Assembly: GCF_050920415.1 (NCBI RefSeq)
Contig: NZ_CP169309.1
Length of the DNA stretch: 64,000 bases
Reading direction: 5' to 3' (one strand)
Source: Escherichia coli
Lineage (GTDB): Bacteria > Pseudomonadota > Gammaproteobacteria > Enterobacterales > Enterobacteriaceae
Below are positions 3,983 through 53,707 of the stretch, in pieces. The notes beneath the pieces are model-generated. The model saw only the letters and a list, made by a program, of their open reading frames with translations. It had not been told where the DNA came from and made no database searches. Position 1 is the stretch's first letter. Each line of letters opens with the position of its first letter. A program made the translations under genes and the position numbers.

Positions 3983-5743
3983 TTACTTCAGCGGCGAACG
4001 GTTACGATCAATGCCGTAGCGTTCGATCTCTTTATACGGCACGGTTTTTGACTGGCGCTTGCGCACATCAACCAGCGTCACACGGTCGGTACAGGAGTAG
4101 CAGGGATCAAGGCTACCGATAATCAGCGGTGCGTCAGAAACGGTATTGCCGCGCAGCATGTAACGCAGCACTGGCCAGTTGGCGTAGGTGGCGGCACGAC
4201 AGCGCCAGCGGAACAATTTTTGGTTATCGCCGAGCATGCTCCAGTGCACGTCTTCACCGCGTGGCGCTTCAACAAAGCCCAGCGCGAATGCGTGAGGTTT
4301 ATAGCTAAAGCCTTCGGTCAGCAGTGGGGTATCCGGCATGTTGTCGAGGGCAAATTCCAGCATTGCCAGCGAATCAAACGTCTCTTTGACACGGACCATC
4401 ACGCGGGAGAAGACATCGCCGCCGGTAAAGGTAAACAGCGTTTTTGGAATATTGCCGTAGTCGGCGTAGGGGTGATCAAAGCGCAAATCACGGGCAAAAC
4501 CACTGCCACGGATCAGCGGCCCTACGGGGCTATAATCACGGGCGATTTGTCGGTCGAGAATGCCAATGCCCTGAGTGCGTTGTTCCATATTCGGCGTGGC
4601 AAGCAGCATCTCTACCAGCTCCGACACGTCGGCGCGCATCTCGCGCACCAGTTTCATCGTTTGCAGACGTTGCTCTTTGAGAATATCGCGGCGAACACCA
4701 CCAATCAGATTCAGACCGTAGGTTTTACGCGACCCGGTCAGCAATTCCGCCATCGTCATCGACTTTTCCCGCACGCGGAAAAATTGCATAAAACCGGTAT
4801 CAAAACCAACAAAATGGCAGGAGAGGCCAAGGTTGAGCAAATGACTATGCAGCCGTTCGACTTCCAGCAGAATCGAGCGAATAGTATGCGCTCGTTGCGG
4901 CACCTCAATCCCCAGTGCATTTTCAACCGAGTTGGTATAGGCCACACTGTGGGCAAAACCGCAAATCCCACACACGCGGTCCGACAAGAAGGTCACTTCG
5001 TTGTAGCCCATCCGCGTTTCTGCCAGTTTCTCCATGCCGCGATGGACATAAAACAGGCGGTAATCAGCATCGACAATATGCTCGCCATCCACAAACAAGC
5101 GGAAGTGACCTGGTTCATCGGAGGTGATATGCAGCGGGCCAACAGGGATCACCCGCGCATCGCTGTTGCCCTCGTTGATAAACGGATACGTTTCGGTATC
5201 AGTCGTCGGTTCAGGGCGCAGGCGATAATCCATCGCGTCTTTGCGCAGCGGATGCATATCTTCCGGCCAGTCATCGGGCAACACCAGGCGACGCTGATCC
5301 GGCAGGCCAACCGGAATCAGCCCGTACATATCGCGAATTTCTCGCTCGCCCCAGACCGCGGCAGGGACGCGCGGTGTGACTGACGGAAACTCCCGACTGT
5401 CGGCATCGACCAGTGCCTTCACCACGATCCAGCATTTTTCGGCCCCTTCCATTGAAAGGGCATAATAAACCGCGTAATGACCGTTAAGTGTCCGCTCGTC
5501 GTTGCCAAACAGGACCGGAAGCCAGCCATCATGTTGATAATAAAGATAATGTACAACGTCAGGCAGCAGATTTATTTTCACCGTAATGGTGACCTGTTCA
5601 GGCGTTTGTCGCTCTTCATCCAGCACCGCGCCGGGGAACTGCGTTTTCAGGGCGGCGAGAATCGCTTCGCCACGATTTGACGATGAATTAACGTTCACTG
5701 TGTTTCTCCGAAACAGATGCGGTGCCTGAAGGCAAAAAATCAT
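3983..5743 (-). CDS. hyfG: Hydrogenase-4 large (NiFe) subunit
   Basis: Longest ORF 586 aa; NuoD/HycE-like sequence. True start is probably an internal GTG near 5698 ([14 protein letters not shown]...). Confidence 0.9.
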
Positions 5744-12984: not shown

Positions 12985-13025
12985 GTCGGCTCCTTGAAAA
13001 TGATATGAAACATTGCATTTCATAT

Positions 13026-13041
13026 TGCATAAAGGATGCCA
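13026..13041 (-). promoter_or_regulatory. Sigma-54 (-24/-12) promoter of hyf operon
   Basis: Minus-strand reads TGGCAT-CCTTT-ATGCA (consensus TGGCAC-N5-TTGCA) about 40 bp upstream of the hyfA ATG; consistent with the HyfR/FhlA-dependent hyf promoter. Confidence 0.65.
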
Positions 13042-13236
13042 GTCTGATTAATTTAATATATTCAATAAGTTATGTATTAACTGGATTCTGAACGGTACAA
13101 AAATGATGGTCATTAACGTTCAGCAATAAATGGATTCGACACCCGTGTCGCAGGGGAAAGCGAGAATGTGATCTTGATCACGAGAAGTGAGGTGTGCTGG
13201 CCGCAAGCGCAGCCAGCACTGAATGGAGCAAAGTAA

Positions 13237-13707
13237 TCAGGCGTGTTCTTTCAGCCAGTTCAGCACAACGTCGTGGTGATTGCTGGTTTTGAAATCGTCA
13301 AAGACATGTTCGATTTTGCCATCAGCGTCAATCAGGAAGCTGATGCGATGAATACCATCGTAGGTTTTGCCCATGAAGGACTTTTCACCCCAGACGCCGA
13401 ATTGTTCGCACACCTGGTGGTCCTCATCAGACAGGAGCGTAAAGTTAAGCAGCTCTTTTTCCGCAAAACGGGAGAGTTTTTCGGGTTTATCGGTGCTGAT
13501 ACCCAGCACATCAACGCCCGCTTTTTTCAATTCATCCATGTTATCGCGTAAGCCGCAGGCCTGTACGGTACAGCCGGGAGTCATGGCTTTTGGGTAAAAA
13601 TAAACCAGAACACGCTGTCCCTGGAAGTCGGTCAAATTAACTTGTTCTCCGTCTTGATCCGGCAAGCTAAATTTCGGTGCGATATCACCGGCTTTCAGTG
13701 GATTCAT
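13237..13707 (-). CDS. bcp: Thiol peroxidase / bacterioferritin comigratory protein (peroxiredoxin)
   Basis: 156-aa ORF; peroxiredoxin active-site motif PGCT. Confidence 0.95.
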   Translation of the reverse strand: MNPLKAGDIAPKFSLPDQDGEQVNLTDFQGQRVLVYFYPKAMTPGCTVQACGLRDNMDELKKAGVDVLGISTDKPEKLSRFAEKELLNFTLLSDEDHQVCEQFGVWGEKSFMGKTYDGIHRISFLIDADGKIEHVFDDFKTSNHHDVVLNWLKEHA

Positions 13708-14279
13708 TACTTAACTCCATCCTGTTCATCATGTGGGGAATAATTGACGACGTTTATACTGCCTTGTGCATTGAGTTCTGTACATAGGGCTTTAAACGCT
13801 TGCTCAATATTTGCTGCATCCGCAGAGGCGGGACTGTGGGCGGTTATCTGAATATGCAACTGTGCAGCCCGTTCATTTTCAGCAGGTTGCGTGCGCGACA
13901 CCAGCTCCGCAATGTTCATATGGTGCGCGTCGAAAAGTGCCGTGAAGCGTTCAATTAAATGCGGGGAGTCTGCCACATCGACCTGAACCCAGACAGATGC
14001 TGGCATTGGCGGACGCGGACGCGCCGTCGTGCGCTTCATCACGATTAAAAGATCCAGTTCGGCACCTTTCAACGGTAACGTTGATTCAATCAGAGTAATG
14101 GCATTCCATGAACCGGAAAGCAGCATGATAAACGTGAACTCTTCTCCCAGCATCGCCAGGCGACTGTCTTCAATATTACAGCCGCAACTACTGACATGAC
14201 GGGTGATGGTGTTCACAATTCCAGGGCGATCGGCACCCAACGCAGTGATCACCAGATAATGTTGCGATGACAGTGTCAA
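13707..14279 (-). CDS. gcvR: Glycine cleavage system transcriptional repressor
   Basis: ORF 212 aa; recognised GcvR sequence (TLSSQHYLVITALGADRPGIV...) begins at an apparent TTG start at 14279, giving 190 aa. Confidence 0.85.
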   Translation of the reverse strand: MTLSSQHYLVITALGADRPGIVNTITRHVSSCGCNIEDSRLAMLGEEFTFIMLLSGSWNAITLIESTLPLKGAELDLLIVMKRTTARPRPPMPASVWVQVDVADSPHLIERFTALFDAHHMNIAELVSRTQPAENERAAQLHIQITAHSPASADAANIEQAFKALCTELNAQGSINVVNYSPHDEQDGVK

Positions 14280-14424
14280 ACTGGTTATTCCTTTAAGGGG
14301 TGAGTTGTTCTTAAGGAAAGCATAAAAAAAACATGCATACAACAATCAGAACGGTTCTGTCTGCTTGCTTTTAATGCCTTACCAAACGTACCATTGAGAC
14401 ACTTGTTTGCACAGAGGATGGCCC

Positions 14425-15303
14425 ATGTTCACGGGAAGTATTGTCGCGATTGTTACTCCGATGGATGAAAAAGGTAATGTCTGTCGGGCTAGCTTGAAAA
14501 AACTGATTGATTATCATGTCGCCAGCGGTACTTCGGCGATCGTTTCTGTTGGCACCACTGGCGAGTCCGCTACCTTAAATCATGACGAACATGCTGATGT
14601 GGTGATGATGACGCTGGAGCTGGCTGACGGGCGCATTCCGGTAATTGCAGGGACCGGCGCTAACGCTACTGCGGAAGCCATTAGCCTGACGCAGCGCTTC
14701 AATGACAGTGGTATCGTCGGCTGTCTGACGGTAACCCCTTACTATAATCGTCCGTCGCAAGAAGGTTTGTATCAGCATTTCAAAGCCATCGCTGAACATA
14801 CTGACCTGCCACAAATTCTGTATAATGTGCCGTCCCGTACTGGTTGCGATCTGCTCCCGGAAACGGTGGGCCGTCTGGCGAAAGTAAAAAATATTATCGG
14901 AATCAAAGAGGCTACAGGGAACTTAACGCGTGTAAACCAGATCAAAGAGCTGGTTTCAGATGATTTTGTTCTGCTGAGCGGCGATGATGCGAGCGCGCTG
15001 GACTTCATGCAATTAGGCGGTCATGGGGTTATTTCCGTTACGGCTAACGTCGCAGCGCGTGATATGGCCCAGATGTGCAAACTGGCGGCAGAAGGGCATT
15101 TTGCCGAGGCACGCGTTATTAATCAGCGTCTGATGCCATTACACAACAAACTATTTGTCGAACCCAATCCAATCCCGGTGAAATGGGCATGTAAGGAATT
15201 GGGTCTTGTGGCGACCGATACGCTGCGCCTGCCAATGACTCCAATCACCGACAGTGGTCGTGAGACGGTCAGAGCGGCGCTTAAGCATGCCGGTTTGCTG
15301 TAA
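14425..15303 (+). CDS. dapA: 4-hydroxy-tetrahydrodipicolinate synthase
   Basis: Starts [17 protein letters not shown]; 292 aa; recognised DapA sequence. Confidence 0.95.
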
Positions 15304-15319
15304 AGTTTAGGGAGATTTG

Positions 15320-16354
15320 ATGGCTTACTCTGTTCAAAAGTCGCGCCTGGCAAAGGTTGCGGGTGTTTCGCTTGTTTTATTACTCGCAGCCTGTAGTTCT
15401 GACTCACGCTATAAGCGTCAGGTCAGTGGTGATGAAGCCTACCTGGAAGCGGCACCGCTTGCGGAGCTTCATGCCCCGGCTGGAATGATTTTGCCGGTGA
15501 CCTCCGGTGATTATGCAATCCCGGTGACCAACGGTAGTGGTGCTGTCGGTAAGGCGCTGGACATTCGTCCACCAGCCCAGCCGCTGGCACTGGTTTCTGG
15601 CGCGCGTACCCAGTTCACGGGCGATACCGCTTCATTGCTGGTGGAAAATGGTCGTGGCAATACTCTGTGGCCGCAGGTGGTTAGCGTGCTGCAGGCGAAA
15701 AACTACACCATCACCCAACGTGATGATGCGGGTCAGACGCTGACCACCGATTGGGTACAATGGAACCGTCTGGACGAAGACGAGCAGTATCGTGGTCGTT
15801 ATCAAATCTCTGTTAAGCCGCAGGGTTATCAGCAGGCGGTTACGGTTAAACTGCTGAACCTGGAACAGGCGGGCAAACCGGTTGCAGACGCGGCTTCCAT
15901 GCAGCGTTACAGCACGGAGATGATGAACGTTATTTCCGCCGGTCTGGATAAATCTGCCACTGACGCCGCGAACGCTGCGCAAAATCGTGCCTCCACCACT
16001 ATGGACGTACAAAGTGCAGCTGATGACACCGGTTTACCGATGCTGGTCGTACGCGGGCCGTTCAATGTGGTTTGGCAACGTCTGCCAGCGGCGCTGGAAA
16101 AAGTGGGCATGAAAGTGACCGACAGCACCCGTTCGCAGGGCAACATGGCCGTAACTTACAAGCCGCTGTCTGACAGCGACTGGCAGGAACTGGGCGCGAG
16201 CGATCCAGGCCTGGCATCCGGTGACTATAAACTGCAGGTTGGCGATTTAGATAACCGCAGCAGCCTACAGTTCATCGATCCGAAAGGTCATACTCTGACT
16301 CAGAGTCAGAACGACGCGCTGGTAGCTGTCTTCCAGGCTGCGTTTAGCAAGTAA
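15320..16354 (+). CDS. bamC: Outer-membrane protein assembly lipoprotein BamC (NlpB)
   Basis: Starts [27 protein letters not shown] (lipobox); 344 aa. Confidence 0.95.
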
Positions 16355-16362
16355 AAATACAG

Positions 16363-16388
16363 GGCTGGAGTCATCCGGCCCTTTTTTC
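16363..16388 (+). terminator. Rho-independent terminator after dapA-bamC
   Basis: Hairpin GGCTGGA-gtca-TCCGGCC followed by CTTTTTTC. Confidence 0.55.
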
Positions 16389-16397
16389 TGATATGAT

Positions 16398-16413
16398 ACG
16401 CAAACGTGTGCGT
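16398..16413. promoter_or_regulatory. PurR operator (PUR box) upstream of purC
   Basis: ACGCAAACGTGTGCGT matches the 16-bp palindromic PurR box consensus ACGCAAACGTTTGCGT. Confidence 0.7.
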
Positions 16414-16459
16414 CGGCAGAAAAATGCGATTTTGGCGGTAATTCGCACGAAATTTGTTT

Positions 16460-16500
16460 GTCGGACGTAGGGCGGATAAGGCGTTCTTGCCGCATCCGAC
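16460..16500. repeat. REP (repetitive extragenic palindromic) element
   Basis: GTCGGACGTAGGGCGGATAAGGCGTTCTTGCCGCATCCGAC, typical E. coli REP palindrome. Confidence 0.7.
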
Positions 16501-16566
16501 AAAACATCCGGCACACCAGACAGCAAAAGATTTTAAAACGTTAATTCACACCCAGGAGTGATAAAG

Positions 16567-17280
16567 ATGCAAAAGCAAGCTGAGTTGTATCGTGGTAAAG
16601 CGAAAACCGTATACAGCACGGAAAACCCGGACCTGTTGGTGCTCGAATTCCGCAATGATACGTCAGCAGGGGATGGCGCGCGCATTGAGCAGTTTGATCG
16701 CAAAGGTATGGTGAACAACAAGTTCAACTACTTCATTATGAGCAAACTGGCTGAAGCGGGTATCCCGACTCAAATGGAGCGTCTGCTCTCCGATACCGAA
16801 TGTCTGGTGAAAAAGCTGGATATGGTGCCGGTTGAGTGTGTCGTGCGTAACCGTGCTGCTGGCTCTCTGGTGAAACGTCTTGGAATCGAAGAAGGTATTG
16901 AGCTGAACCCGCCGCTGTTCGATCTGTTCCTGAAAAACGACGCCATGCACGATCCGATGGTCAACGAATCTTACTGCGAAACCTTTGGCTGGGTGAGCAA
17001 AGAGAATCTGGCGCGTATGAAAGAGCTAACCTACAAAGCGAACGACGTGCTGAAAAAACTGTTCGATGATGCTGGTCTCATTCTGGTCGACTTCAAGCTG
17101 GAGTTTGGTCTGTACAAAGGCGAAGTGGTTCTGGGCGATGAGTTCTCCCCGGACGGCAGCCGCCTGTGGGACAAAGAAACGCTGGAGAAAATGGATAAAG
17201 ACCGTTTCCGCCAGAGCCTCGGTGGCCTGATCGAAGCCTATGAAGCCGTTGCCCGCCGCCTGGGTGTACAGCTGGACTGA
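16567..17280 (+). CDS. purC: Phosphoribosylaminoimidazole-succinocarboxamide synthase
   Basis: Starts [31 protein letters not shown]; 237 aa. Confidence 0.95.
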
Positions 17281-17447
17281 TTTTTCTATTCATCATCTTG
17301 CCGTGCTGCTGGCACGGCAAGACAACCGCGCTCATAAGATGTGCATTGAACGCTCATTCCTCCGCCATTTCATTCCGCTTTCCTGTGGTAATCTTCCTCT
17401 GAACCACCTACGATCATTTCTATAATGAATATATTGTTGAGGTATCT

Positions 17448-18311
17448 ATGCGTTGGCAAGGGCGACGTGAAAGTGACAATGTTGAAGACAGGCGCAATAG
17501 CTCCGGTGGTCCGTCAATGGGCGGTCCCGGTTTCCGTCTGCCAAGCGGTAAAGGCGGGCTGATTTTACTGATAGTCGTGCTGGTTGCAGGCTACTATGGC
17601 GTTGATTTAACTGGGTTGATGACCGGACAGCCGGTTTCCCAACAGCAATCAACGCGGTCAATTAGCCCAAATGAAGACGAAGCCGCAAAATTCACCTCGG
17701 TGATTCTGGCAACCACCGAAGACACCTGGGGACAGCAGTTCGAGAAGATGGGTAAGACCTATCAGCAACCGAAGCTGGTCATGTACCGTGGAATGACGCG
17801 CACCGGCTGCGGGGCGGGCCAGTCCATTATGGGGCCGTTCTATTGCCCGGCGGATGGCACGGTTTATATCGATCTCTCCTTCTATGATGACATGAAAGAC
17901 AAACTTGGCGCGGATGGCGATTTTGCCCAGGGGTACGTTATCGCCCATGAAGTCGGTCATCATGTGCAGAAACTGTTAGGCATCGAGCCGAAAGTCCGTC
18001 AACTGCAACAAAACGCGACGCAGGCGGAAGTGAACCGCTTATCTGTACGTATGGAACTCCAGGCCGACTGTTTTGCCGGTGTCTGGGGGCATAGCATGCA
18101 GCAGCAAGGCGTTCTGGAAACCGGCGATCTGGAAGAAGCGCTGAACGCGGCGCAGGCCATCGGCGATGACCGTTTACAGCAGCAAAGTCAGGGGCGAGTC
18201 GTACCAGACAGTTTCACTCATGGCACTTCTCAGCAACGCTACAGCTGGTTTAAACGTGGTTTCGACAGCGGCGATCCGGCACAATGCAATACTTTTGGTA
18301 AAAGCATTTAA
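17448..18311 (+). CDS. ypfJ: Predicted zinc metalloprotease (neutral zinc metallopeptidase family)
   Basis: 287-aa ORF with HEVGHH zinc-binding motif and N-terminal TM segment. Confidence 0.9.
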
Positions 18312-18325
18312 CTTTCGGGGCAGGG

Positions 18326-20341
18326 ATGGCTGAACTGACTGCGCTTCACCCATTAACAGCGCAAATGAAACGTGAAGGGATCCGCCGCTTGCTGGTGTTG
18401 AGCGGGGAAGAACGTTGGTGCTTTAACCTTGCGCTTAAGTTGAGTGATGCCTTACCTGGCGACTGGTTGTGGGTTTCGCCGCAGCCAGTCGCTGAAAACC
18501 ACTGTACTCCCTCGGCGCTACAAACTTTACTTGGACGCGAATTCCGGCATGCGATATTCGACGCCCGCCAGGGCTTTGATGCCGCTGCCTTTGCTGCACT
18601 TAGCGGAACGTTGAAAGCCGGAAGCTGGCTGGTGTTGTTACTCCCTGTATGGGAAGAGTGGGAAAACCAACCTGATGCCGACTCGCTGCGCTGGAGTGAT
18701 TGCCCTGACCCTATTGCGACGCCGCATTTTGTCCGGCACCTCAAACGCGTACTTACGGCGGATCACGATGCTATCCTCTGGCGGCAAAACCAGCAGTTCA
18801 CGTTGACGCATTTTATTCCCCGTACTGACTGGCAACCCGCGACCGGCGCACCACAACCAGAACAACAGCAACTCTTACAGCAGCTACTCACCATGCCGCC
18901 GGGTGTGTCAGCGGTAACTGCTGCGCGTGGGCGCGGTAAGTCGGCGCTGGCAGGGCAACTCATTTCTCGTATTGCGGGCAGTGCGATTGTCACCGCGCCT
19001 GCAAAAGCGGCAACGGATGTACTGGCACAATTTGCGGGCGAAAAGTTTCGCTTTATTGCGCCGGATGCCTTGTTAGCCAGCGATGAGCAAGCCGACTGGC
19101 TGGTGGTCGATGAAGCCGCAGCCATACCTGCGCCGTTGTTGCATCAACTGGTATCGCGTTTTCCTCGAACGTTGTTAACCACTACGGTACAGGGCTACGA
19201 AGGTACCGGACGTGGTTTTTTGCTGAAATTTTGTGCGCGTTTCCCGCATTTACACCGTTTCGAATTGCAACAGCCGATCCGCTGGGCGCAGGGATGCCCG
19301 CTGGAAAAAATGGTCAGCGAGGCACTGGTTTTTGACGATGAAAACTTCACCCATACACCACAAGGCAATATCGTCATTTCCGCTTTTGAACAGACCTTAT
19401 GGCGAAGCGATCCGGATACACCGTTAAAGGTATATCAGCTATTGTCTGGCGCGCACTACCGGACCTCGCCGCTGGATTTACGCCGCATGATGGATGCACC
19501 TGGGCAACATTTTTTCCAGGCGGCTTGTGAAAACGAGATCGCCGGGGCGCTGTGGCTGGTGGATGAGGGCGGATTATCTCAAGAACTCAGCCAGGCGGTA
19601 TGGGCAGGTTTTCGTCGCCCGCGCGGTAATCTGGTAGCCCAGTCGCTGGCGGCGCACGGCAGCAATCCACAGGCAGCGACATTGCGCGGACGGCGGGTCA
19701 GCAGGATAGCAGTTCATCCAGCTCGTCAGCGTGAAGGCATTGGGCAACAGCTTATTGCCCGTGCTTTAAATTATACGCATGACCTCGACTATCTTTCGGT
19801 GAGTTTTGGCTACACCGCGGAGTTATGGCGTTTCTGGCAACGCTGCGGTTTTGTGCTGGTGCGAATGGGTAATCATCGTGAAGCCAGCAGCGGTTGCTAT
19901 ACGGCGATGGCACTGTTACCGATGAGTGATGCGGGTAAACAGCTGGCTGAACGTGAGCATTACCGTTTACGTCGCGATGTGCATGCTCTCACGCAGTGGA
20001 ATGGCGAAACGCTCCCCGTCGATCCACGAAATGATGCCGTCCTTTCTAAGGACGACTGGCTTGAACTGGCCGGTTTTGCTTTTGCTCATCGTCCGCTATT
20101 AACGTCGTTAGGTTGCTTAACGCGTCTGCTACAAACCAGTGAACTGGCATTACCGGCGCTGCGTGGTCGTTTACAGAAAAACGCCATTGACGCGCAGTTA
20201 TGTACCACACTTAAACTTTCAGGCCGCAAGATGTTACTGGCCCGTCAGCGAGAGGAGGCCGCGCAGGCGCTGTTCGCACTTGATAATGTTCGCACTGAGC
20301 GTCTGCGCGATCGCATAACGCAATGGCAATTTTTTCACTGA
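18326..20341 (+). CDS. tmcA: tRNA(Met) cytidine acetyltransferase
   Basis: 671-aa ORF; P-loop (GRGKS) helicase-like domain plus GNAT acetyltransferase domain. Confidence 0.9.
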   Translation: MAELTALHPLTAQMKREGIRRLLVLSGEERWCFNLALKLSDALPGDWLWVSPQPVAENHCTPSALQTLLGREFRHAIFDARQGFDAAAFAALSGTLKAGSWLVLLLPVWEEWENQPDADSLRWSDCPDPIATPHFVRHLKRVLTADHDAILWRQNQQFTLTHFIPRTDWQPATGAPQPEQQQLLQQLLTMPPGVSAVTAARGRGKSALAGQLISRIAGSAIVTAPAKAATDVLAQFAGEKFRFIAPDALLASDEQADWLVVDEAAAIPAPLLHQLVSRFPRTLLTTTVQGYEGTGRGFLLKFCARFPHLHRFELQQPIRWAQGCPLEKMVSEALVFDDENFTHTPQGNIVISAFEQTLWRSDPDTPLKVYQLLSGAHYRTSPLDLRRMMDAPGQHFFQAACENEIAGALWLVDEGGLSQELSQAVWAGFRRPRGNLVAQSLAAHGSNPQAATLRGRRVSRIAVHPARQREGIGQQLIARALNYTHDLDYLSVSFGYTAELWRFWQRCGFVLVRMGNHREASSGCYTAMALLPMSDAGKQLAEREHYRLRRDVHALTQWNGETLPVDPRNDAVLSKDDWLELAGFAFAHRPLLTSLGCLTRLLQTSELALPALRGRLQKNAIDAQLCTTLKLSGRKMLLARQREEAAQALFALDNVRTERLRDRITQWQFFH

Positions 20342-20414
20342 CTCCTTCAATTTTCTCCCATGGTCATTGTGAGTCAGCGGCGTAAAATTAATGACATCAG
20401 TTAAGGAGTTCGCC

Positions 20415-21116
20415 ATGAAACATGACCATTTTGTTGTTCAAAGCCCGGATAAACCTGCACAACAGTTGTTACTGCTTTTCCACGGTGTCGGGGATAACCC
20501 GGTAGCGATGGGTGAGATCGGCAGCTGGTTTGCGCCGCTGTTTCCTGATGCACTGGTGGTGAGCGTCGGTGGCGCGGAGCCGAGCGGTAATCCGGCGGGG
20601 CGTCAGTGGTTTTCGGTACAGGGTATTACGGAAGATAATCGCCAGGCGCGTGTGGATGCCATCATGCCGACGTTTATTGAGACGGTGCGCTACTGGCAGA
20701 AACAGAGCGGAGTAGGGGCTAACGCCACGGCGCTAATCGGTTTCTCACAAGGCGCGATTATGGCACTGGAGAGCATTAAAGCCGAACCGGGTCTTGCTTC
20801 GCGCGTCATTGCCTTTAACGGACGTTACGCCAGCTTGCCGGAAACCGCGTCTACAGCCACGACAATTCACCTGATTCATGGCGGTGAAGATCCGGTTATC
20901 GATCTGGCGCATGCGGTTGCGGCGCAGGAAGCGTTAATCAGTGCCGGTGGTGACGTGACGCTGGATATTGTGGAGGATTTAGGCCATGCAATCGACAATC
21001 GCAGTATGCAATTTGCCCTGGATCACTTGCGTTATACCATACCGAAACATTATTTCGACGAAGCGCTAAGTGGTGGCAAACCTGGCGATGATGATGTAAT
21101 TGAAATGATGCAATAA
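20415..21116 (+). CDS. ypfH: Esterase (phospholipase/carboxylesterase family)
   Basis: Starts MKHDHFVVQSPDKP; alpha/beta hydrolase GFSQG nucleophile elbow. Confidence 0.9.
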   Translation: MKHDHFVVQSPDKPAQQLLLLFHGVGDNPVAMGEIGSWFAPLFPDALVVSVGGAEPSGNPAGRQWFSVQGITEDNRQARVDAIMPTFIETVRYWQKQSGVGANATALIGFSQGAIMALESIKAEPGLASRVIAFNGRYASLPETASTATTIHLIHGGEDPVIDLAHAVAAQEALISAGGDVTLDIVEDLGHAIDNRSMQFALDHLRYTIPKHYFDEALSGGKPGDDDVIEMMQ

Positions 21117-21120
21117 TAGC

Positions 21121-21205
21121 CTGGTAGGCCTGATAAGACGCGTGAGCGTCGCATCAGGCATCGTTCACCATTGCCGGATGCGGCATTAACGCCTTATCCG
21201 GCCAC
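21121..21205. repeat. REP elements (pair)
   Basis: GCCTGATAAGACGCGTGAGCGTCGCATCAGGC and GCCGGATGCGGCATTAACGCCTTATCCGGCC palindromes between convergent ypfH and ypfN. Confidence 0.7.
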
Positions 21206-21210
21206 TTAGC

Positions 21211-21411
21211 TTACTTCTTCGGTTGATCCTTTTTCGGCCAATCGTCGTCATCGTCCCACTTATCGTTGAAATCACGATGCGGGGGAAGCTCCGGCTTGTT
21301 GGCGAGAAATTTCTTATGGTCGACGCGCTTGAGATCTTTAATCACGTTCAGCAGGACGCCAACCAAAAAGACAATCACCAGAATCCACCAATATTTAGCC
21401 AGCCAGTCCAT
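21211..21411 (-). CDS. ypfN: Small membrane protein YpfN (UPF0370)
   Basis: Starts [26 protein letters not shown]; 66 aa with one TM helix and acidic tail. Confidence 0.85.
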
Positions 21412-21438
21412 GCTTATTTCCTCTTGCAGAACCACTCA

Positions 21439-22566
21439 TCAGGCGACGAGCTGTTCCATGATACGTTGATACATACGGGCAAGTAGCTGCAGGTCGGCAG
21501 CGTTCACACATTCATTAATTTTATGAATAGTGGCATTGACCGGCCCGAGTTCCACCACCTGCGCCCCCATGCGGGCAATAAAGCGCCCGTCAGACGTTCC
21601 GCCTGTGGTCAGTAGCTGCGGTTTAATTTCATTATAGTGCTCAACCGCGTTAACGACCGCATCCACCAGTTTGCCGCGCGCGGTCAAAAATGGCTGCCCG
21701 GAAAGCCACCAATCCACCGTATAACGCAGTTGATGTTTTTCAAGCAGGGCAAGCACCTGCGCTTTGATCATCTCATCCGTCAGTTCGGTGCTAAAGCGGA
21801 AGTTAAACTGCACAAACAGTTCACCCGGAATAACGTTGTTACTGCCCGTTCCCGCCTGAATATTGGCAATCTGCATACTGGTCGCCGGGAAAAATTCATT
21901 ACCCTGATCCCACTCGATAGCCACTAGCTCATTTAGGAAAGGTGCTGCGCGATGTACCGGGTTGTCAGCCAGATGCGGGTAGGCTACATGCCCCTGCACG
22001 CCATGAATGGTGAGGTTGCAGGTTAACGATCCGCGACGACCATTTTTCACCACGTCACCAACCACTTCGATGCTCGATGGTTCGCCGACCAGGCAGTAAT
22101 CGAGACGCTCATTACGCGCCATTAACGCTTCGACGACTTTTACCGTACCGTTGTGGGCACTGGCTTCTTCATCAGAAGTGATCAGGAATGCCAGTCGACC
22201 TGTATGGTTGGGATGTTGCGCGACAAAACGTTCTGCTGCTACCACCATCGCCGCCAGTGAGCCTTTCATATCTGCCGCGCCGCGCCCGAACAACATGCCG
22301 TCACGAATGGTTGGTTCAAACGGCGGATTAATCCAACGGTCTGCGTCGCCAGGCGGTACCACGTCGGTATGTCCGGCAAAGGCTAACGTTTCGCCCTGCC
22401 CACGCCACGCCCAAAAGTTTTGCGTATCGGCAAAGTCCATGCGTTCAACGGTAAAACCGATCGCCTGCAGACGTTCGATCATGATTGCCTGACATCCCGC
22501 ATCATCAGGGCTTAAGGATGGGCGGCGAATAAGCTGCTGGGTCAGCTCAATAACCGGGCACGACAT
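21439..22566 (-). CDS. dapE: Succinyl-diaminopimelate desuccinylase
   Basis: 375-aa M20 peptidase family ORF starting [20 protein letters not shown]. Confidence 0.95.
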
Positions 22567-22569
22567 AGA

Positions 22570-22944
<375 letters not shown>

Positions 22945-23306
22945 TTATGAGAATAAATACTCATTTAAGGGTGAAAACATTTTGCCTGCAAATCATTATC
23001 AAGAAATATAACATTATCGAAGTATTCAAATTAACAACTATTAAATAATATTAAACATTTTTAACGTAAGCATTAAGAATATTCATCTTGTTATCTGCCT
23101 GTATTTTAAACAGAATTAAACCAGTACTAGATTCCGTATGAATATCTCGAAATGTTGCTGTGTATCACATACAAATCATTGCTGCAGGACCATAGTATTT
23201 ACATAAAGTTTGTCCCCCGGAGGTAGTCATCGCAGCAATCGAGTAAATTAGCTTCACCACGGTATATTGTTTCCGTAGAATACCCATAATTATAAGAGAG
23301 GTTGTT

Positions 23307-23366
23307 ATGATTGAACGTGAACTGGGGAACTGGAAAGACTTTATCGAAGTTATGCTTCGTAAGTAA
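23307..23366 (+). CDS. ypfM: Small protein YpfM (19 aa)
   Basis: ATG...TAA encodes MIERELGNWKDFIEVMLRK with GAGAGG SD 6 nt upstream; not in ORF track because it is under the length cutoff; recognised as K-12 ypfM. Confidence 0.7.
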   Translation: MIERELGNWKDFIEVMLRK

Positions 23367-23425
23367 TTCCTGAGACAAAGTACAAACAGAAAGTACCTGC
23401 TGAACAGGTTCTTTATCGGAAAGTT

Positions 23426-23458
23426 GAAAAAGGCGACACATTGGTATGTCGCCTTTTT
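23426..23458. terminator. Bidirectional rho-independent terminator (ypfM / acrD convergent)
   Basis: AAAAAGGCGACA-cattggta-TGTCGCCTTTTT: GC-rich stem flanked by A-run and T-run. Confidence 0.75.
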
Positions 23459-23464
23459 AATTGC

Positions 23465-26400
23465 TTATTCCGGGCGTGGCTTCAGCGGGAAGCGGCGGCG
23501 TACCAACACAAAGAACAGCGGCACGAAGTAAATAGCCAGAATCGTGGCCGAAATCATCCCGCCCATTACGCCAGTACCCACCGCATGCTGGCCACCGGAA
23601 CCGGCCCCTGTGCTGGTTGCCATTGGCAATACGCCGAAGATAAAGGCCAGAGAGGTCATCAGAATCGGACGTAAACGCTGACGGCAGGCGTGGAGCGTCG
23701 CTTCAAACAGGTCGTGGCCTTTTTGGTTCATCTCGTTAGCAAACTCGACGATAAGGATGGCGTTTTTCGCCGATAAACCAATCACCGTTAACAGGCCTAC
23801 CTGGAAGTAAACGTCGTTTTCCAGCCCGCGCAGCCATGTTGCCAGCAGCGCGCCGATAACGCCCAGCGGCACGACCAGCATCACCGAGAACGGCACCGAC
23901 CAGCTTTCATACAGCGCCGCCAGACACAGGAATACCACCAGCAATGAAATGGCATACAGCGCCGGAGCCTGCGCGCCGGAGAGTCGCTCCTGATACGACA
24001 TCGCCGTCCATTCCAAACCAAAGCCGCTTGGCAACTGCTTCACTAACGATTCCATAATATCCATTGCCGTACCGGTGCTGACCCCCGGCGCGGCTTCCCC
24101 GACAATCTCTACCGCTGAATAACCGTTATAGCGTTCCAGACGCGGCGAGCCTGTTTCCCAGCGTGAGGTCGCGAAAGCAGAGAAGGGGACCATGCCACCA
24201 TCTTTATTTCGTACATACCAGAGATTGATGTCATCTGGCAGCATGCGATATGGCGCAGCTGCCTGCACATAGACTTTCTTCACGCGACCGCGATCCATAA
24301 AGTCATTCACATAGCTCGAACCCCACGCGGTTTGCAGCGTGTCGTTAATATCGTCGATAGCAACGCCCAGCGCCTGAGCTTTACGCTGATCGATATCAAT
24401 CTGCAACTGCGGACTGTCGTCGAGGCCGTTATGGCGTACACGGGTTAACTCCGGATTTTCCGCCGCCAGAGCCAGCAACTGGTTACGTGCTGCCATCAGC
24501 GCATCGTGACCCGCACCAGCGTGGTCCTGCAACTCCATATCAAAACCCGCAGAACTGCCAAGGCCACTAATTGCTGGCGGGCTGCTGGCGATAACGCGAG
24601 CTTCTTTAATCTTATTAAATTCCTTCGTTGCACGTTCGATAATGGCAAACGAGGTGCCGGTCTTACTGTCGCGTTCGCTCCAGTCTTTCAGGCGGATAAA
24701 CATTCGCGCCACGTTTTGCCCGTTACCCCCAGGGCCAGAACCAACGGTGGCAAACACTGACATGATGTTGTCTTTTTCATGGGTGAAGTAATATTTCTCG
24801 ATTTGCTCAACGACTTTCAGGGTCTGTTGTTGGGTTGAACCGCTGGGCAACTGTACCGAGGTAGTAAACATGCCACGGTCTTCCAGCGGCAAGAACGACG
24901 TCGGCAAACGCAGGAACAGGAACACCATGCCGCCAAGCAGCAGGACATAAATCACAATCCAGCGCAGGCTACGGTGGAGAATTTTTGCTACCCCTTTTTC
25001 GTAGCGTTCGGCGTTGCGGTTAAACATCTGGTTAAACCAGGCAAAAAAGCCTTTTTGCCCGTGATGCTCACCTTTTTTCAGTGGCTTAAGTAGCGTGGCG
25101 CACAGAGCCGGAGTGAGGATCATCGCTACCAGTACTGACAGCACCATCGCCGCAACAATGGTAATAGAGAACTGGCGATAGATAGCTCCGGTGGTGCCGC
25201 CGAAGAAGGCCATTGGCACAAATACCGCCGACAGCACCATCGCAATCCCGACCAGTGCTCCCTGGATCTGCCCCATCGATTTACGTGTGGCTTCGCGAGG
25301 AGTGAGTCCTTCCTCACTCATAATACGTTCGACGTTTTCCACCACCACGATGGCGTCATCCACCAGCAGACCGATCGCCAGCACCATCGCGAACATGGTT
25401 AAGGTGTTGACGCTGTAACCGAAGGCGTAAAGTACGGAGAAGGTTCCCATCAACACCACCGGCACGGCGATAGTTGGTATCAGCGTGGCACGGAAGTTTT
25501 GCAAGAACAGATACATAACGAGGAAAACCAGGGCGATAGCTTCCAGCAGCGTTTTCACCACGTCTTCAATGGAGGCTTTAACAAATGAGGTGGTTTCATA
25601 TGCCACCTTGTATTCCAGTCCATGTGGGAAGTACTGCGCCAGTTCGTCGAGACGATTGAGTACCAGCTCCGCTGTTGCCATTTCGTTCGCGCCGGAGGCC
25701 AGTTTTACCCCCAGCCCGGAGGCTGGCTTACCGTTGAAGCGGCTGAGATAATCGTATTTCTCTGCCCCCATTTCGACGGTGGCGACATCGCCCAGCCTTA
25801 CTTCTGAGCCGTCCTGATTCACCCGTAAGGTGATATCGCGGAACTGTTCTGGTGTTTGCAGCAGTGACTGGGCGTTAATGGTGGCGTTGAGCGCCTGCTT
25901 ATCGACGGAAGGCGTACCACCAAGTTGCCCAACCGCAATCTGCGCGTTCTGTGACTCAATGGCATCAGTGACATCTTTAGCCGTCATCTGAAAACTGTTG
26001 AGTTTCGCCGGGTCCAGCCAGATACGCATTGAATATTGCGAACCATAGGCATCGATATCCCCGACGCCATTCACGCGGCTTAATGGGTCCTGAATATTAC
26101 TGGCAACGTAATCGGCAATATCCTGCTTATCCATCGAACCATCGGTAGAGACGAAGGCAATGGTAAGAATGTTGGTATCGCCGGTTTTACGCACCGTCAC
26201 GCCCTGATTTTGCACCGCCTGCGGCAACTTTCGCATGGCTGATTGCAGCTGGTTTTGTACTTGCTGCACTGCTTCGTCCGGATCGGTGCCCGCTTTAAAA
26301 CTTAAGGTGACAGATGCCTGACCGGTGCCACTGCTTTGAGACGACATATACATGATATTATCGAGGCCGGTCATATTTTGCTCGATAACCTGGGTCACGG

Positions 26401-26578
26401 TGTTTTCCAGCGTCTGAGCCGATGCGCCGGGGTAGTTAGCGGTTACTCGCACGTTAGGCGGTGCAAGATCCGGGTATTGTTCAACGGGCAATGAGAAAAT
26501 CGCCAGGGTTCCTGTCAGACACAACAGGATTGCCAGCACCCAGGCAAAAATGGGGCGATCAATAAAGAAATTCGCCAT
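23465..26578 (-). CDS. acrD: RND aminoglycoside/multidrug efflux pump
   Basis: 1037-aa ORF, 12-TM RND transporter, starts [19 protein letters not shown]. Confidence 0.95.
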
Positions 26579-26741
26579 TAAAAGAGGACCTCGTGTTTCT
26601 GCGTATTGTTGTTGGCATGCCTTGCTTCACTGTAGCGGCAAGGTACGGACCAATCGTGGAGAAAAAAAGGAGTTAATGTAAATTATCATGCCCTTTTATA
26701 CTGAACCTTAAGTGCAAGTATTCTTTGGTAAGTAGGTGGCA

Positions 26742-28442
26742 TTACATTAGCTGGCTTTCCTCACCCTCCGCAGAGCGAAAGCTAATACTCACTAACGTGC
26801 CGCCACCGGAAGGTTGTGAAAAAGTCAGCGTTCCACCCAGTCGTTCCGCGCGTTCGCGCATAATATTCAGACCATAGTGACCTTCGGGTTCTTTCGGTTC
26901 TCCGATGCCAATCCCGTTATCACGGATATAGACTGTGTGATTGCCGTCCGGCGCGGTGACGCAACTAACGGCTATTTCGCTGGCGTTGGCGTGCTTCATC
27001 GCATTGAGTACCGCTTCGCGAATAATTTGCAACAAATGCACCTGCATTTGCGCATCCAGCGCCAGTGTTGGCAGACGGCAGTCGAGAGTCAGTTTTGCGC
27101 TGGTTTGATTTTGTAACGTATCCAGCATTTCCCGCAACGCGGAGGGAAGATCCGCTTGCTGCAGCGTCAGGCGGAACGTGGTCAACAGCTCGCGTAACTG
27201 TCGATAAGCATCATTCAATGCCTGGGAGAAATCGGCCATGATATTTTGTGCGGTGGCGTTATCTTCCGGTATCGAACGTTTAAGTAACGTCAACTGGATA
27301 CGTAAGTAAGAAAGCACCTGGGCCAGCGAATCATGTAATTCCCGTGCGATGGTGGCACGTTCTTCCATCAACAGTAACTGCTGAAAATGCTTCTGCGCCT
27401 GATTAAAGTACAAACCGCGCCCCAGCATCGACGAAACGCTGTTAAGCAGCGGTTCTGATGATGACACGTGGCTATTTTGCCAGTGCAGTTCGCCGTAAAC
27501 CGTCTCTTGCATCGTTACCGGTAAAATCTGCATCGGCAATTCGGGGTTTGGTTTCCCTTCACTAATCCGCCAGTTTTCACCGACATTCAACTCCAGATAT
27601 TCAGCCGCTTCATTGTCGCGAACAATCTGCAAAATATGGCGGAAACAATGCACATCTATCTGGCTGGTGTTCAGCGCCTGCGAACACTGATACAACACCT
27701 CCAGGCGACGCTTGGCCTCGTGGAGATCACGGGTTTTTTCTTCTACTGAAGCTTCCAGCGAACGATACAATTTATGCAGCTCGCTCGACATCTGGTTAAA
27801 GGTTTTGGCCAACAGTCCCAGCTCATTGGGCAGACTGGTATCCAGCGGCGGCGAATCGAACTGGCCGTGTTCAATACGCTGACTGGCGGTAACCAGCTGA
27901 TTCAGCGGGGCAACCACCTGATGGCGTATGCGGCGCAGAGTAAAAAAGACCAGCGTGAAAATACCGATGCCGCCAGCCAGGGAGATCGCCACCACCAGCA
28001 GCATTTTGCGTTCGGCGTAGTGCTGTAAAGCCAGCACGAACAGGTCTATCTGATTAACATAATTATTAATATTGGCCTGATACCACGGCAAATCGCCCTT
28101 GCTGAGCCGATTATTCATCTCCAGCCAGTTGGCATTCAGATGCGCATAGCGGGTTTTTACTGCCTCTGGCACATACCAGACGTTGAGATTGGTTAACACC
28201 GGTGAGTGCAGTGCCTGTTGGAACAGCTGGCGATGCGCATTGAGTTGTGGACTGCCGCTTTGCAAGTCGTAGCCCAGGCGGTAACTCTGCATACGCAACG
28301 ATCCGGCAATATTGATAGCCTCAGCGTCGCGCAAACTGCTCGCCAGAGTTAGCAGTGCGATACCCGTGGAAAGAATCGACAGCAGCACAATGTAAAAAAA
28401 GGCCCGGGCCAGACTGGCCGAGACGGGGCGTTTAACAATCAC
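26742..28442 (-). CDS. narQ: Nitrate/nitrite sensor histidine kinase
   Basis: ORF 571 aa; recognised NarQ (566 aa) would start at GTG 28440-28442 (IVKRPVSASL...); HAMP and HisKA_3 (ELHDSLAQ) domains. Confidence 0.9.
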   Translation of the reverse strand: MIVKRPVSASLARAFFYIVLLSILSTGIALLTLASSLRDAEAINIAGSLRMQSYRLGYDLQSGSPQLNAHRQLFQQALHSPVLTNLNVWYVPEAVKTRYAHLNANWLEMNNRLSKGDLPWYQANINNYVNQIDLFVLALQHYAERKMLLVVAISLAGGIGIFTLVFFTLRRIRHQVVAPLNQLVTASQRIEHGQFDSPPLDTSLPNELGLLAKTFNQMSSELHKLYRSLEASVEEKTRDLHEAKRRLEVLYQCSQALNTSQIDVHCFRHILQIVRDNEAAEYLELNVGENWRISEGKPNPELPMQILPVTMQETVYGELHWQNSHVSSSEPLLNSVSSMLGRGLYFNQAQKHFQQLLLMEERATIARELHDSLAQVLSYLRIQLTLLKRSIPEDNATAQNIMADFSQALNDAYRQLRELLTTFRLTLQQADLPSALREMLDTLQNQTSAKLTLDCRLPTLALDAQMQVHLLQIIREAVLNAMKHANASEIAVSCVTAPDGNHTVYIRDNGIGIGEPKEPEGHYGLNIMRERAERLGGTLTFSQPSGGGTLVSISFRSAEGEESQLM

Positions 28443-28647
28443 ACGCGTCTTCTCCACATAAAATCATTAATGTTCCAGTTTGCTGAAATGCAATTTAATC
28501 AGTGATGGGATTATTTGATCTGCCACAGTTTATAGCGAAATAGTGACTTATTCTGGGCACATGAACATTGCCGATTCCCCTGTAAGTCGGGTAATAACAA
28601 CACTCATATAAAGAATAAGGTTTTTACAACCAAAAAAGAAGGTCGTT

Positions 28648-53349: not shown

Positions 53350-53667
53350 TTATTGCCCAACGGGATAGGCGATAAACAAACCGACAATTGTCAGAATACA
53401 CGCCAGCAGGAATACCAACATACAATTTACGCGCTTTCGCGAAATTTTAAATAAATAGCAAAATAGTGTTGTTACCACGATCACTACCGGGATAGTCATA
53501 AAATTAATAACGATGAGTGCTATCAATCCAAAACTTGCTCCTCCACCGTGGGGAATAAAAATGTGTTCTTCAAAATAAACTTCTATAGCAAATGCCAGCA
53601 CACATCCCAGAAAACTCATATCCAGATGAGGGTGCCATTTACTTTCTTTATTTGATGTGTCTGACAT
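53350..53667 (-). CDS. Hypothetical small membrane protein (3 predicted TM helices), accessory
   Basis: 105-aa ORF in markedly AT-rich DNA; GGGAG SD ~9 nt upstream of ATG; hydrophobic segments; no K-12 counterpart at this position that I recognise. Confidence 0.6.
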   Translation of the reverse strand: MSDTSNKESKWHPHLDMSFLGCVLAFAIEVYFEEHIFIPHGGGASFGLIALIVINFMTIPVVIVVTTLFCYLFKISRKRVNCMLVFLLACILTIVGLFIAYPVGQ

Positions 53668-53707
53668 TCTTAAATGCTCCCGTGAGCAAACTGGCGCAAA
53701 ATAATTT

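Follow-up and report, generated by a model that had tools for sequence, protein, structure and literature searches.

Annotated near-cognate start codons of gcvR, narQ and hyfG in an Escherichia coli chromosome segment

The window analysed here, a stretch of 64,000 nucleotides, is a segment of the Escherichia coli chromosome with the gene order hyf–bcp–gcvR–dapA…acrD–narQ–eut. Three of its genes are considered below: gcvR, narQ and hyfG. Reading of the sequence places TTG 14279, GTG 28442 and GTG 5698 on the minus strand, as an earlier note on this DNA had stated; hyfG (5698) falls outside the span 13707–28442 given there. These codons are the RefSeq/PGAP starts in the 100%-identical record NZ_CP169399.1, and the comparison with curated K-12 MG1655 that the note had proposed returns the same starts for all three genes. 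Non-ATG starts are annotated for 5 of the 59 CDSs in the window (4 GTG, 1 TTG), eutQ and eutA, which the note had overlooked, also beginning with GTG. An enrichment of such starts in the window was considered and rejected, the E. coli background of AUG, GUG and UUG being 83, 14 and 3%, i.e. about 17% non-AUG. A text search of the TetRP supplementary files gave no mention of gcvR, narQ or hyfG.

GcvR works with GcvA as an accessory repressor, and UUG is the weakest of the canonical start codons. The features at gcvR are as follows.

13707..14279, minus strand: gcvR CDS, 190 aa, TTG start at 14279-14277 (RefSeq and K-12 annotation, profile, conservation)
14289..14294, minus strand: gcvR Shine-Dalgarno (SD) sequence AAGGAA, paired segment ending 8 nt 5' of the TTG, -5.6 kcal/mol
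14312..14332, minus strand: near-invariant block GTTTTTTTTATGCTTTCCTTA 5' of gcvR, shared by 79 Enterobacteriaceae loci

Translation from TTG 14279 gives MTLSSQHYLV... Upstream, the frame extends back to TGA 14348 with only TTG 14345 and TTG 14342 as in-frame candidates; its first ATG is residue 43 (14153), none lying upstream of TTG 14279. GcvR matches the NCBIfam model NF008612 over its full length (393.9 bits, cut-off 267), and position 1 of this equivalog falls on residue 23 of the 212-aa longest ORF, which is the TTG 14279 codon. Residue 4 of Vibrio cholerae GcvR (1U8S) aligns with residue 6 of the TTG form. Compared with E. coli K-12 gcvR (b2479), the TTG, the SD and the context from -60 to +21 are identical, and the product differs at 1 of 190 residues, with no difference relevant to the start. 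The gcvR start was reportedly the subject of a dedicated experimental study by Ghrist and Stauffer in 1998, in which N-terminal sequencing of a GcvR-LacZ fusion is said to have identified the UUG.

The TTG is kept in 85/85 Enterobacterales sequences, comprising 81/81 Enterobacteriaceae CDSs and 4/4 others (Yersiniaceae, Dickeya, Erwinia and Edwardsiella). At four-fold degenerate sites of the 81 Enterobacteriaceae CDSs, by comparison, only 2 of 45 are invariant and 36 of 45 show all four bases. An AGGAA(G/T) SD motif is retained in 79/79 Enterobacteriaceae loci and in 4 distant families. Between this motif and the block GTTTTTTTTATGCTTTCCTTA the leader of the 79 loci is variable, with indels; the block is a probable promoter element, as its conservation suggests. 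A simple scan for sigma-70 promoters and terminators found no match in the gcvR leader, nor in that of narQ. The frame upstream of the gcvR start is unconserved among genera, with a stop at 8 to >49 codons, and in Erwinia the frame is closed by a TGA 7 codons before the TTG. Residues 7-42, on the other hand, are nearly invariant among orthologues. Public GcvR gene calls from other genera carry spurious N-terminal extensions in 28 of 114 cluster representatives. These extended forms of 201-215 aa (Salmonella, 212 aa; K. oxytoca, 211 aa; Kluyvera, Kosakonia, Serratia and others) read the SD as (K)G(R)TG and have Leu at the TTG.

At narQ, the start codon is part of a composite motif.

26742..28442, minus strand: narQ CDS, 566 aa, GTG start at 28442-28440, the 3' GUG of GUGUGA (annotation, profile)
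28439..28444, minus strand: GUGUGA motif, with an out-of-frame 5' GUG (28444) and then UGA (28441-28439), overlapping the narQ start codon
28452..28455, minus strand: narQ SD sequence GGAG, -6.4 kcal/mol, 8-nt spacing to GTG 28442

Translation from GTG 28442 gives MIVKRPVSASL... Upstream, the reading frame extends back to TGA 28466 and contains one candidate start, GTG 28457, which overlaps the GGAG and lacks a separate SD (-3.3 kcal/mol at 15 nt). No in-frame ATG precedes GTG 28442, the first being at residue 51 (28292). NarQ scores 930 bits over its full length against NF008184 (cut-off 553), whose position 2 falls on residue 7 of the 571-aa longest ORF, placing the onset of homology at residue 6-7. 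The crystal construct PDB 5IJI likewise starts with MIVKRPVSASL, although recombinant structures start at the annotated residue by design and are no proof of the native N-terminus. Orthologues align exactly with the GTG 28442 start, and 7/7 sequences begin with GTG or TTG, toggling among families; this comparison is small. The NarQ homologue search yielded mostly fragmentary proteins. In two lineages among the 7 sequences an in-frame TGA stands immediately 5' of the start.

The GUGUGA of narQ, in which two GUGs overlap and the 5' start is immediately before UGA, has been published as a site of ambiguous initiation, start-stop and reinitiation that depends on A4 (NAR 2022;51:271, PMC9841429). 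In reporters with the K-12 sequence both GUGs initiate, A4-to-G cuts expression about 5-fold, and a single unambiguous GUG in place of the GUGUGA context raises output 7-8-fold (PMC9841429). Both the GGAGAAGACGCGTGTGATT block of the K-12 site and the 20-nt RBS of that reporter are identical in the window. The motif is invariant in 5 E. coli alleles, and GUGUG is absent from 5/5 non-Escherichia narQ orthologues examined. In comparison to the K-12 leader, the window carries a rare allele in which T-to-A creates ATG 28459 (TTG in K-12). This ATG opens a 6-codon ORF, MWRRRV*, out of the narQ frame, which ends on the UGA of GUGUGA.

The third start, that of hyfG, overlaps the preceding gene hyfF.

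3983..5698, minus strand: hyfG CDS, 571 aa, long allele, GTG start at 5698-5696 (annotation, homology, conservation)
5706..5709, minus strand: hyfG SD sequence GGAG, inside the hyfF coding sequence, -6.6 kcal/mol, 6-nt spacing
5741..5743, minus strand: non-start ATG in frame with hyfG, upstream of its GTG, formed by hyfF codons CAT-GAT (His-Asp)

The hyfF stop lies at 5690-5688, and hyfG, from its GTG, shares 11 nt with the end of hyfF (GTGAACGTTAA), as in K-12 hyfG (b2487), where the same GTG stands 11 nt before the hyfF stop. With the start overlapping the hyfF stop and the SD inside hyfF, the layout is that of a coupled overlapping pair, which suggests that hyfF and hyfG may be translationally coupled. 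The tail of HyfF (...TWHDF...) supplies the His-Asp codons that create ATG 5743, 15 codons upstream of the GTG; initiation there would give 586 aa, with an SD of -1.5 kcal/mol and no usable spacing. The first downstream in-frame ATG is residue 83 (5452). Among the 12 sequences compared, a small set, the start is GTG in 12/12, including 11/11 loci from other genera, and GGAGA-N7-GTG is conserved in 11 loci. In 10 of the 11 other-genus loci the frame holds no ATG before the GTG, and Citrobacter has ACG or GTG at the position of ATG 5743. In 7 of the 11 a stop closes the frame upstream, and no ATG occurs from there to the GTG. At the protein level, homology to the paralogue HycE, the formate hydrogenlyase large subunit, sets in at residue 7 of the protein read from the GTG, aligned with HycE residue 4 (7Z0S_E). 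No HyfG/HycE-specific NCBIfam model scored above its cut-off, so the profile comparison covers gcvR and narQ only.

The K-12 HyfG has 555 aa, compared with the 571 aa of the ancestral allele in the window. A different start was considered as the source of this difference and rejected; K-12 HyfG is shorter because of an internal 16-codon deletion (a 48-nt indel). The window hyfG retains 16 conserved codons that are missing from the K-12-type gene.

The annotated and rival in-frame starts were further compared by duplex energy with the anti-SD at the 16S 3' end and by spacing. At the annotated starts the duplex reaches -5.6 (gcvR), -6.4 (narQ) and -6.6 kcal/mol (hyfG) with a spacing of 6-8 nt, a single SD being modest evidence, as -5 to -6 kcal/mol is reached by 8-15% of random 22-mers. 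Rival starts reach at best -3.3 kcal/mol or have poor spacing, and every rival in gcvR gives -1.6 kcal/mol or weaker. In each gene the annotated codon alone has a properly spaced SD. The layout does not differ from generic bacterial GUG/UUG initiation, in which a near-cognate codon lies 6-8 nt 3' of a GGAG/AAGGA SD. The codon at the homology boundary, its SD, its conservation in orthologues and the exclusion of longer forms in some lineages all conform to canonical SD-led initiation.

Could translation begin further upstream, at gcvR TTG 14345 (212 aa), narQ GTG 28457 (571 aa) and hyfG ATG 5743 (586 aa)? All three codons are in frame, and some public pipelines do call the extended GcvR of Salmonella and K. 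oxytoca. We regard this as very improbable: no SD accompanies any of the upstream codons, and the N-terminal residues that they would add match no profile, structure or paralogue. The gcvR upstream frame is broken or variable in length among genera, its extensions merely translating the SD and the TTG, while the TGA immediately 5' of the start in narQ orthologues rules against a longer form, and the hyfG ATG, which arises incidentally from the hyfF His-Asp codons, is missing from 10/11 other loci. Starts at the first downstream ATGs, i.e. GcvR Met43, NarQ Met51 and HyfG Met83, can be practically dismissed. These in-frame ATGs exist (14153, 28292 and 5452), but their SD scores are poor (-1.5, -3.3 and -2.4 kcal/mol, respectively), and their use would delete the nearly invariant residues 7-42 of GcvR, the first transmembrane helix of NarQ, which is present in crystal constructs, and the segment of HyfG homologous to HycE residues 4-80.

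A different doubt concerns meaning rather than position: the sites may be right, with the non-ATG identity a product of neutral drift that has no regulatory significance. Non-AUG starts occur in about 17% of E. coli genes, the narQ start switches between GTG and TTG among families, and start-codon selection is described as generally weak in PMC5622118. The same paper describes this general selection as favouring a change to AUG, which speaks against drift, as do the invariance of the gcvR TTG in 85 sequences despite saturated neutral sites (36/45 four-fold sites with all four bases) and the 7-8-fold gain in reporter output when the narQ GUGUGA context gives way to a single GUG (PMC9841429). 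Drift alone thus appears rather unlikely.

We conclude with high confidence (probability roughly 0.93) that gcvR, narQ and hyfG use ordinary, already-annotated SD-directed initiation at near-cognate start codons. The basis in this analysis is codon identity, SD placement, homology boundaries, conservation and the exclusion of longer forms. The GUG and UUG starts would be read as Met by fMet-tRNA. For gcvR, initiation would occur at UUG 14279, with the AAGGAA SD pairing to a point 8 nt upstream. For narQ, it would occur at the 3' GUG of GUGUGA, downstream of the GGAG SD; ribosomes may likewise enter at the out-of-frame 5' GUG, hit the UGA directly and re-initiate on the narQ GUG, an arrangement that would hold NarQ sensor-kinase output low. 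For hyfG, initiation at GUG 5698 from an SD within hyfF would follow the typical translational-coupling layout of operons. In the literature sought, neither proteomics of native N-termini nor ribosome profiling of initiation sites was found for the three genes.

The N-termini recognised in the earlier note, namely those at TTG and GTG codons, therefore agree with annotation, SD energetics, homology boundaries, cross-genus conservation and the narQ reporter study. Its statement that the longest ATG-initiated ORF exceeds the protein is true of hyfG (ATG 5743, 586 aa) and incorrect for gcvR and narQ; these have no upstream in-frame ATG, and ATG-only calling would therefore shorten rather than lengthen both. 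The concern about mis-annotation is unfounded for this genome, in which PGAP gives all three genes their correct starts, but it is borne out by the extended gcvR calls in public records of other genera.

The non-ATG starts of gcvR, narQ and hyfG are real, correctly read and already known. They carry little biological weight, being present in curated K-12 and in the PGAP annotation of this genome, with dedicated experimental literature on the narQ start. Their practical use is as a sanity check, as ATG-only ORF calling truncates gcvR and narQ and over-extends hyfG, and gcvR orthologues are annotated inconsistently across public databases. The order-wide conservation of the gcvR TTG (85/85) is what this analysis adds to the known K-12 UUG start. 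Strict retention of UUG across Enterobacterales argues for selection for low GcvR synthesis, and more generally conservation suggests that low expression may be the selective reason for the weak starts. We lean towards the view that the gcvR UUG and its AGGAAG SD are under purifying selection throughout the order as an expression-limiting set-point of GcvR:GcvA, with the corollary that about a quarter of public GcvR calls would be 5'-extended mis-annotations. Conserved weak starts of this kind may serve as small examples of how start-codon choice sets the expression of low-abundance regulators.

The earlier note had placed the starts of three minus-strand genes, gcvR, narQ and hyfG, at codons other than ATG. 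All three are identical to the starts annotated by RefSeq, and comparison to curated K-12 MG1655 yields the same starts in identical contexts, so that coordinates and codons are right. The non-ATG starts are thus a real feature, correctly interpreted and already known.

Start codons of gcvR, narQ and hyfG, with Shine-Dalgarno (SD) duplex energy and spacing
14279, minus strand: TTG start of gcvR, ...taaAGGAAtaaccagtTTGACACTGTCATCGCAACATTATCTGGTG; translation MTLSSQHYLV; ΔG -5.6 kcal/mol, spacing 8 nt
28442, minus strand: GTG start of narQ, ...tatgtGGAGaagacgcgtGTGATTGTTAAACGC; translation MIVKRP; ΔG -6.4 kcal/mol, spacing 8 nt
5698, minus strand: GTG start of hyfG, ...tttcGGAGaaacacaGTGAACGTTAATTCA; translation MNVNSS; ΔG -6.6 kcal/mol, spacing 6 nt

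It had further been claimed that in each gene the longest ATG-initiated reading frame exceeds the recognised protein. By frame walk this applies to hyfG, where an in-frame ATG (5743) is located 15 codons upstream of GTG 5698, and to neither of the others. In gcvR the frame begins behind TGA 14348, with TTG 14345 and TTG 14342 as the only upstream candidates; in narQ it begins behind TGA 28466, with GTG 28457 as the only one. The first in-frame ATG encodes residue 43 in gcvR and residue 51 in narQ, downstream of the start, so that gene calling restricted to ATG would shorten both proteins and not lengthen them. Mis-annotation is of no concern in this genome; the concern is justified for public GcvR entries from other organisms, some of which carry N-terminal extensions. 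As a pattern, the non-ATG starts are no more than chance: the 59 annotated coding sequences of the window use 54 ATG, 4 GTG (hyfG, narQ, eutQ, eutA) and 1 TTG (gcvR), a non-ATG frequency below that of the start usage quoted for E. coli in the literature (83/14/3%). The annotated GTG starts of eutQ (39190) and eutA (47309) were absent from the earlier list. Also absent from it were hyfA (12984), ypfH (20415) and eutM (41743), whose annotated ATG starts lie inside longer ATG reading frames, with the further ATG located 13, 8 and 14 codons upstream, respectively; the K-12 annotation of ypfH is 1 codon shorter (699 nt vs 702 nt).

For every in-frame candidate start the duplex energy with the 16S 3′ end was computed. 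Other candidates in the three genes display energies of +1.5 to -3.3 kcal/mol or an impossible spacing. Since 8-15% of random 22-mers reach energies like those of the three starts, this line is supportive and not decisive. Homology boundaries were obtained with the longest reading frames as queries. Profile positions 1-189 of the GcvR equivalog in NCBIfam match residues 23-211, and TTG 14279 is residue 23; position 2 of the NarQ equivalog falls on residue 7. Residue 4 of V. cholerae GcvR (1U8S) pairs with residue 6 of the TTG form, and residue 4 of HycE, the HyfG paralogue and large subunit of formate hydrogenlyase (7Z0S_E, cryo-EM), pairs with residue 7 of HyfG in its GTG form; for the 15 residues added by the ATG form of HyfG, no aligned counterpart was found. 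NarQ crystal constructs begin with MIVKRPVSASL.

The gene order (RefSeq annotation) is focB-hyfRJIHGFEDCBA-bcp-gcvR / dapA-bamC-purC-ypfJ-tmcA-ypfH / ypfN-dapE-yffB / acrD-narQ / aegA-nudK-ypfG, then tkt-tal-maeB-eut. Searched against complete E. coli genomes, the 16.5 kb that surround the finding have a match in 5,425 of 5,426, with 100% identity to NZ_CP169399.1 (in its RefSeq annotation, coordinates equal window + 1). Region 13000-29500 (16.5 kb) reaches at least 99% identity in only 4 of 5,429 matching E. coli records and 95-99% in 5,423; the lineage or allele set to which the window belongs is therefore a sparsely sampled one. Between eutR and hemF (53350-54970) lie two minus-strand genes, annotated as "hypothetical protein" (318 nt) and "DUF1963 domain-containing protein" (1,263 nt).

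The arrangement GGAGA-N7-GTG is kept in 11/11 syntenic hyfG loci (Citrobacter, Phytobacter, Kosakonia, Enterobacter sp. and a metagenome-assembled genome), seven of which have an upstream in-frame stop and no ATG between this stop and the GTG. The E. coli ATG 5743 consists of the hyfF codons CAT-GAT (His-Asp) in another frame, and is lost where His is encoded by CAC. The hyfG SD is located within hyfF, and the hyfG start overlaps the hyfF stop by 11 nt, the classical geometry of translational coupling; judged by this anatomy, the two genes would be coupled. The HyfG N-terminus of E. coli (5687-5698, MNVN...) is 4 codons shorter than in Citrobacter, Kosakonia and Phytobacter (M-N/S-Y-S/L-D/E/A-S-V/I-N/S...; loci L011-L034, retrieved for comparison), with GTG and SD unchanged.

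HyfG comprises 555 aa in K-12 vs 571 aa in the window. A start-site difference is ruled out by an internal 16-codon indel behind the same GTG: 48 nt at 4496-4543 (minus strand), encoding HyfG residues 386-401, are missing from K-12 MG1655, and the deletion is flanked by two 10-nt direct repeats, GCCCGTGATT. The long form is present in 11/11 HyfG proteins of other genera and also in HycE, and the 571-aa allele is the ancestral one. In a set of 5,426 E. coli genomes, the long allele occurs in 2,179 and the short one in about 2,115, and 1,132 gave no match; the short allele is carried by K-12 and by about one half of the E. coli that possess hyf. The deleted segment holds a GPxxRxSG motif conserved in HycE, Pyrococcus MBH and the 49-kDa/NuoD subunits of complex I, the mitochondrial 49-kDa subunit included. 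In the work of Finney et al. 2020 (PMC7654741), extensive engineering of K-12, with 15 strains built, did not yield Hyd-4 activity. The hyfG deletion is a candidate cause of this absence, an explanation of which we found no mention in that paper or in other searchable literature.

The N-termini of NarQ orthologues align residue for residue (M-[ITL]-VKR-[PS]-V-[ST]). Hafnia and Serratia start with TTG; the window, K-12, Paramixta and two metagenome/sequencing-run orthologues (amino-acid identities of 90% and 63%) start with GTG. Two lineages have a TGA in frame immediately before the start codon. The narQ start is treated in NAR 2022;51:271 (PMC9841429), with the 3′ GUG of GUGUGA as the annotated start codon. 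According to this study, the GGAG SD allows both overlapping GUGs to reach the P site, and both are used in luciferase fusions; replacing A4 by G abolishes the UGA that follows the 5′ GUG and reduces expression about 5-fold, and a single unambiguous GUG raises it 7-8-fold. Its authors proposed start-stop termination-reinitiation. The window shares GUGUGA and the 20-nt ribosome binding site with the K-12 gene studied there. Five E. coli alleles (94-100% leader identity) all carry this block unchanged; it is absent from the five non-Escherichia orthologues. The narQ leader of the window is a rare allele, with at least 99% identity over 141 nt in only 8 of 5,356 genomes. A T-to-A change creates ATG 28459 (TTG in K-12, 55989 and O157:H7) and with it a putative 6-codon out-of-frame ORF, MWRRRV* (28439-28459, minus strand), which spans the narQ SD, has no SD of its own and ends at UGA 28441-28439, the very UGA of the published GUG-UGA start-stop. 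A frameshifted narQ copy is annotated on NZ_CP019906.1, a 29-kb record labelled E. coli MDR_56 plasmid, which may be a mis-assigned chromosomal fragment.

Between gcvR and dapA, the block GTTTTTTTTATGCTTTCCTTA (14312-14332, minus strand) is near-invariant in 79 Enterobacteriaceae loci, and the 20-30 nt separating it from the gcvR SD are variable, with indels. TATGCT within the block is a plausible candidate for the -10 promoter element of gcvR; scanning with a simple sigma-70 consensus gave no match.

Among the best 120 public GcvR cluster representatives (P0088-P0207), 114 carry the HYLVITALG-type N-terminal motif H[YHF][LF]V[IV]TA[LV]G by which the start was placed. It is at the E. coli position in 81 of these 114; another 28 have an unconserved extension of 6-25 residues, with Leu at the position of E. 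coli Met1 and the SD translated as (K)G(R)TG. The 28 extended entries are probably 5′-extended mis-annotations of a TTG-start gene. Examples come from Salmonella, K. oxytoca, Kluyvera, Kosakonia, Serratia and Edwardsiella, and in mis-annotated orthologues the intergenic block is read as MLYAGFFYAF.

The UUG start of gcvR was reportedly determined by Ghrist and Stauffer in 1998 through N-terminal sequencing of a GcvR-LacZ fusion. Their paper (PMC107093) is cited in the reference list of PMC2615304. A genome scan yielded 80 loci from ~30 enterobacterial genera; TTG stands at the E. coli start position in 79/79 loci (81/81 coding sequences counting the window), preceded by the conserved SD AGGAA(G/T)AAC. 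Codons 2-5 drift and the upstream region contains indels; the nearest in-frame stop lies 8, 11, 12, 23, 26, 28 or more codons upstream depending on genus, so gcvR has no conserved upstream reading frame. TTG is also found in four more distant groups (Yersiniaceae, Dickeya, Erwinia, Edwardsiella), and in Erwinia a TGA 7 codons upstream leaves no alternative start between. Of the 45 four-fold sites in this alignment, just 2 are invariant and 36 display all four bases. With neutral sites thus saturated, an unvarying first T is evidence that UUG specifically is selected for. Selection on start codons generally favours AUG (PMC5622118), and retention of UUG in gcvR thus opposes the usual trend.

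All three genes share SD-led initiation, with near-cognate codons decoded by initiator tRNA, which is established knowledge; in the reporter of Hecht et al., initiation from GUG and UUG amounts to 10-100% of that from AUG. For narQ, the GUGUGA arrangement would throttle output further, as reporters with the K-12 sequence show. A weak UUG would suit GcvR as a low-level accessory repressor, and based on the order-wide conservation we infer that the weakness of this start is itself selected.
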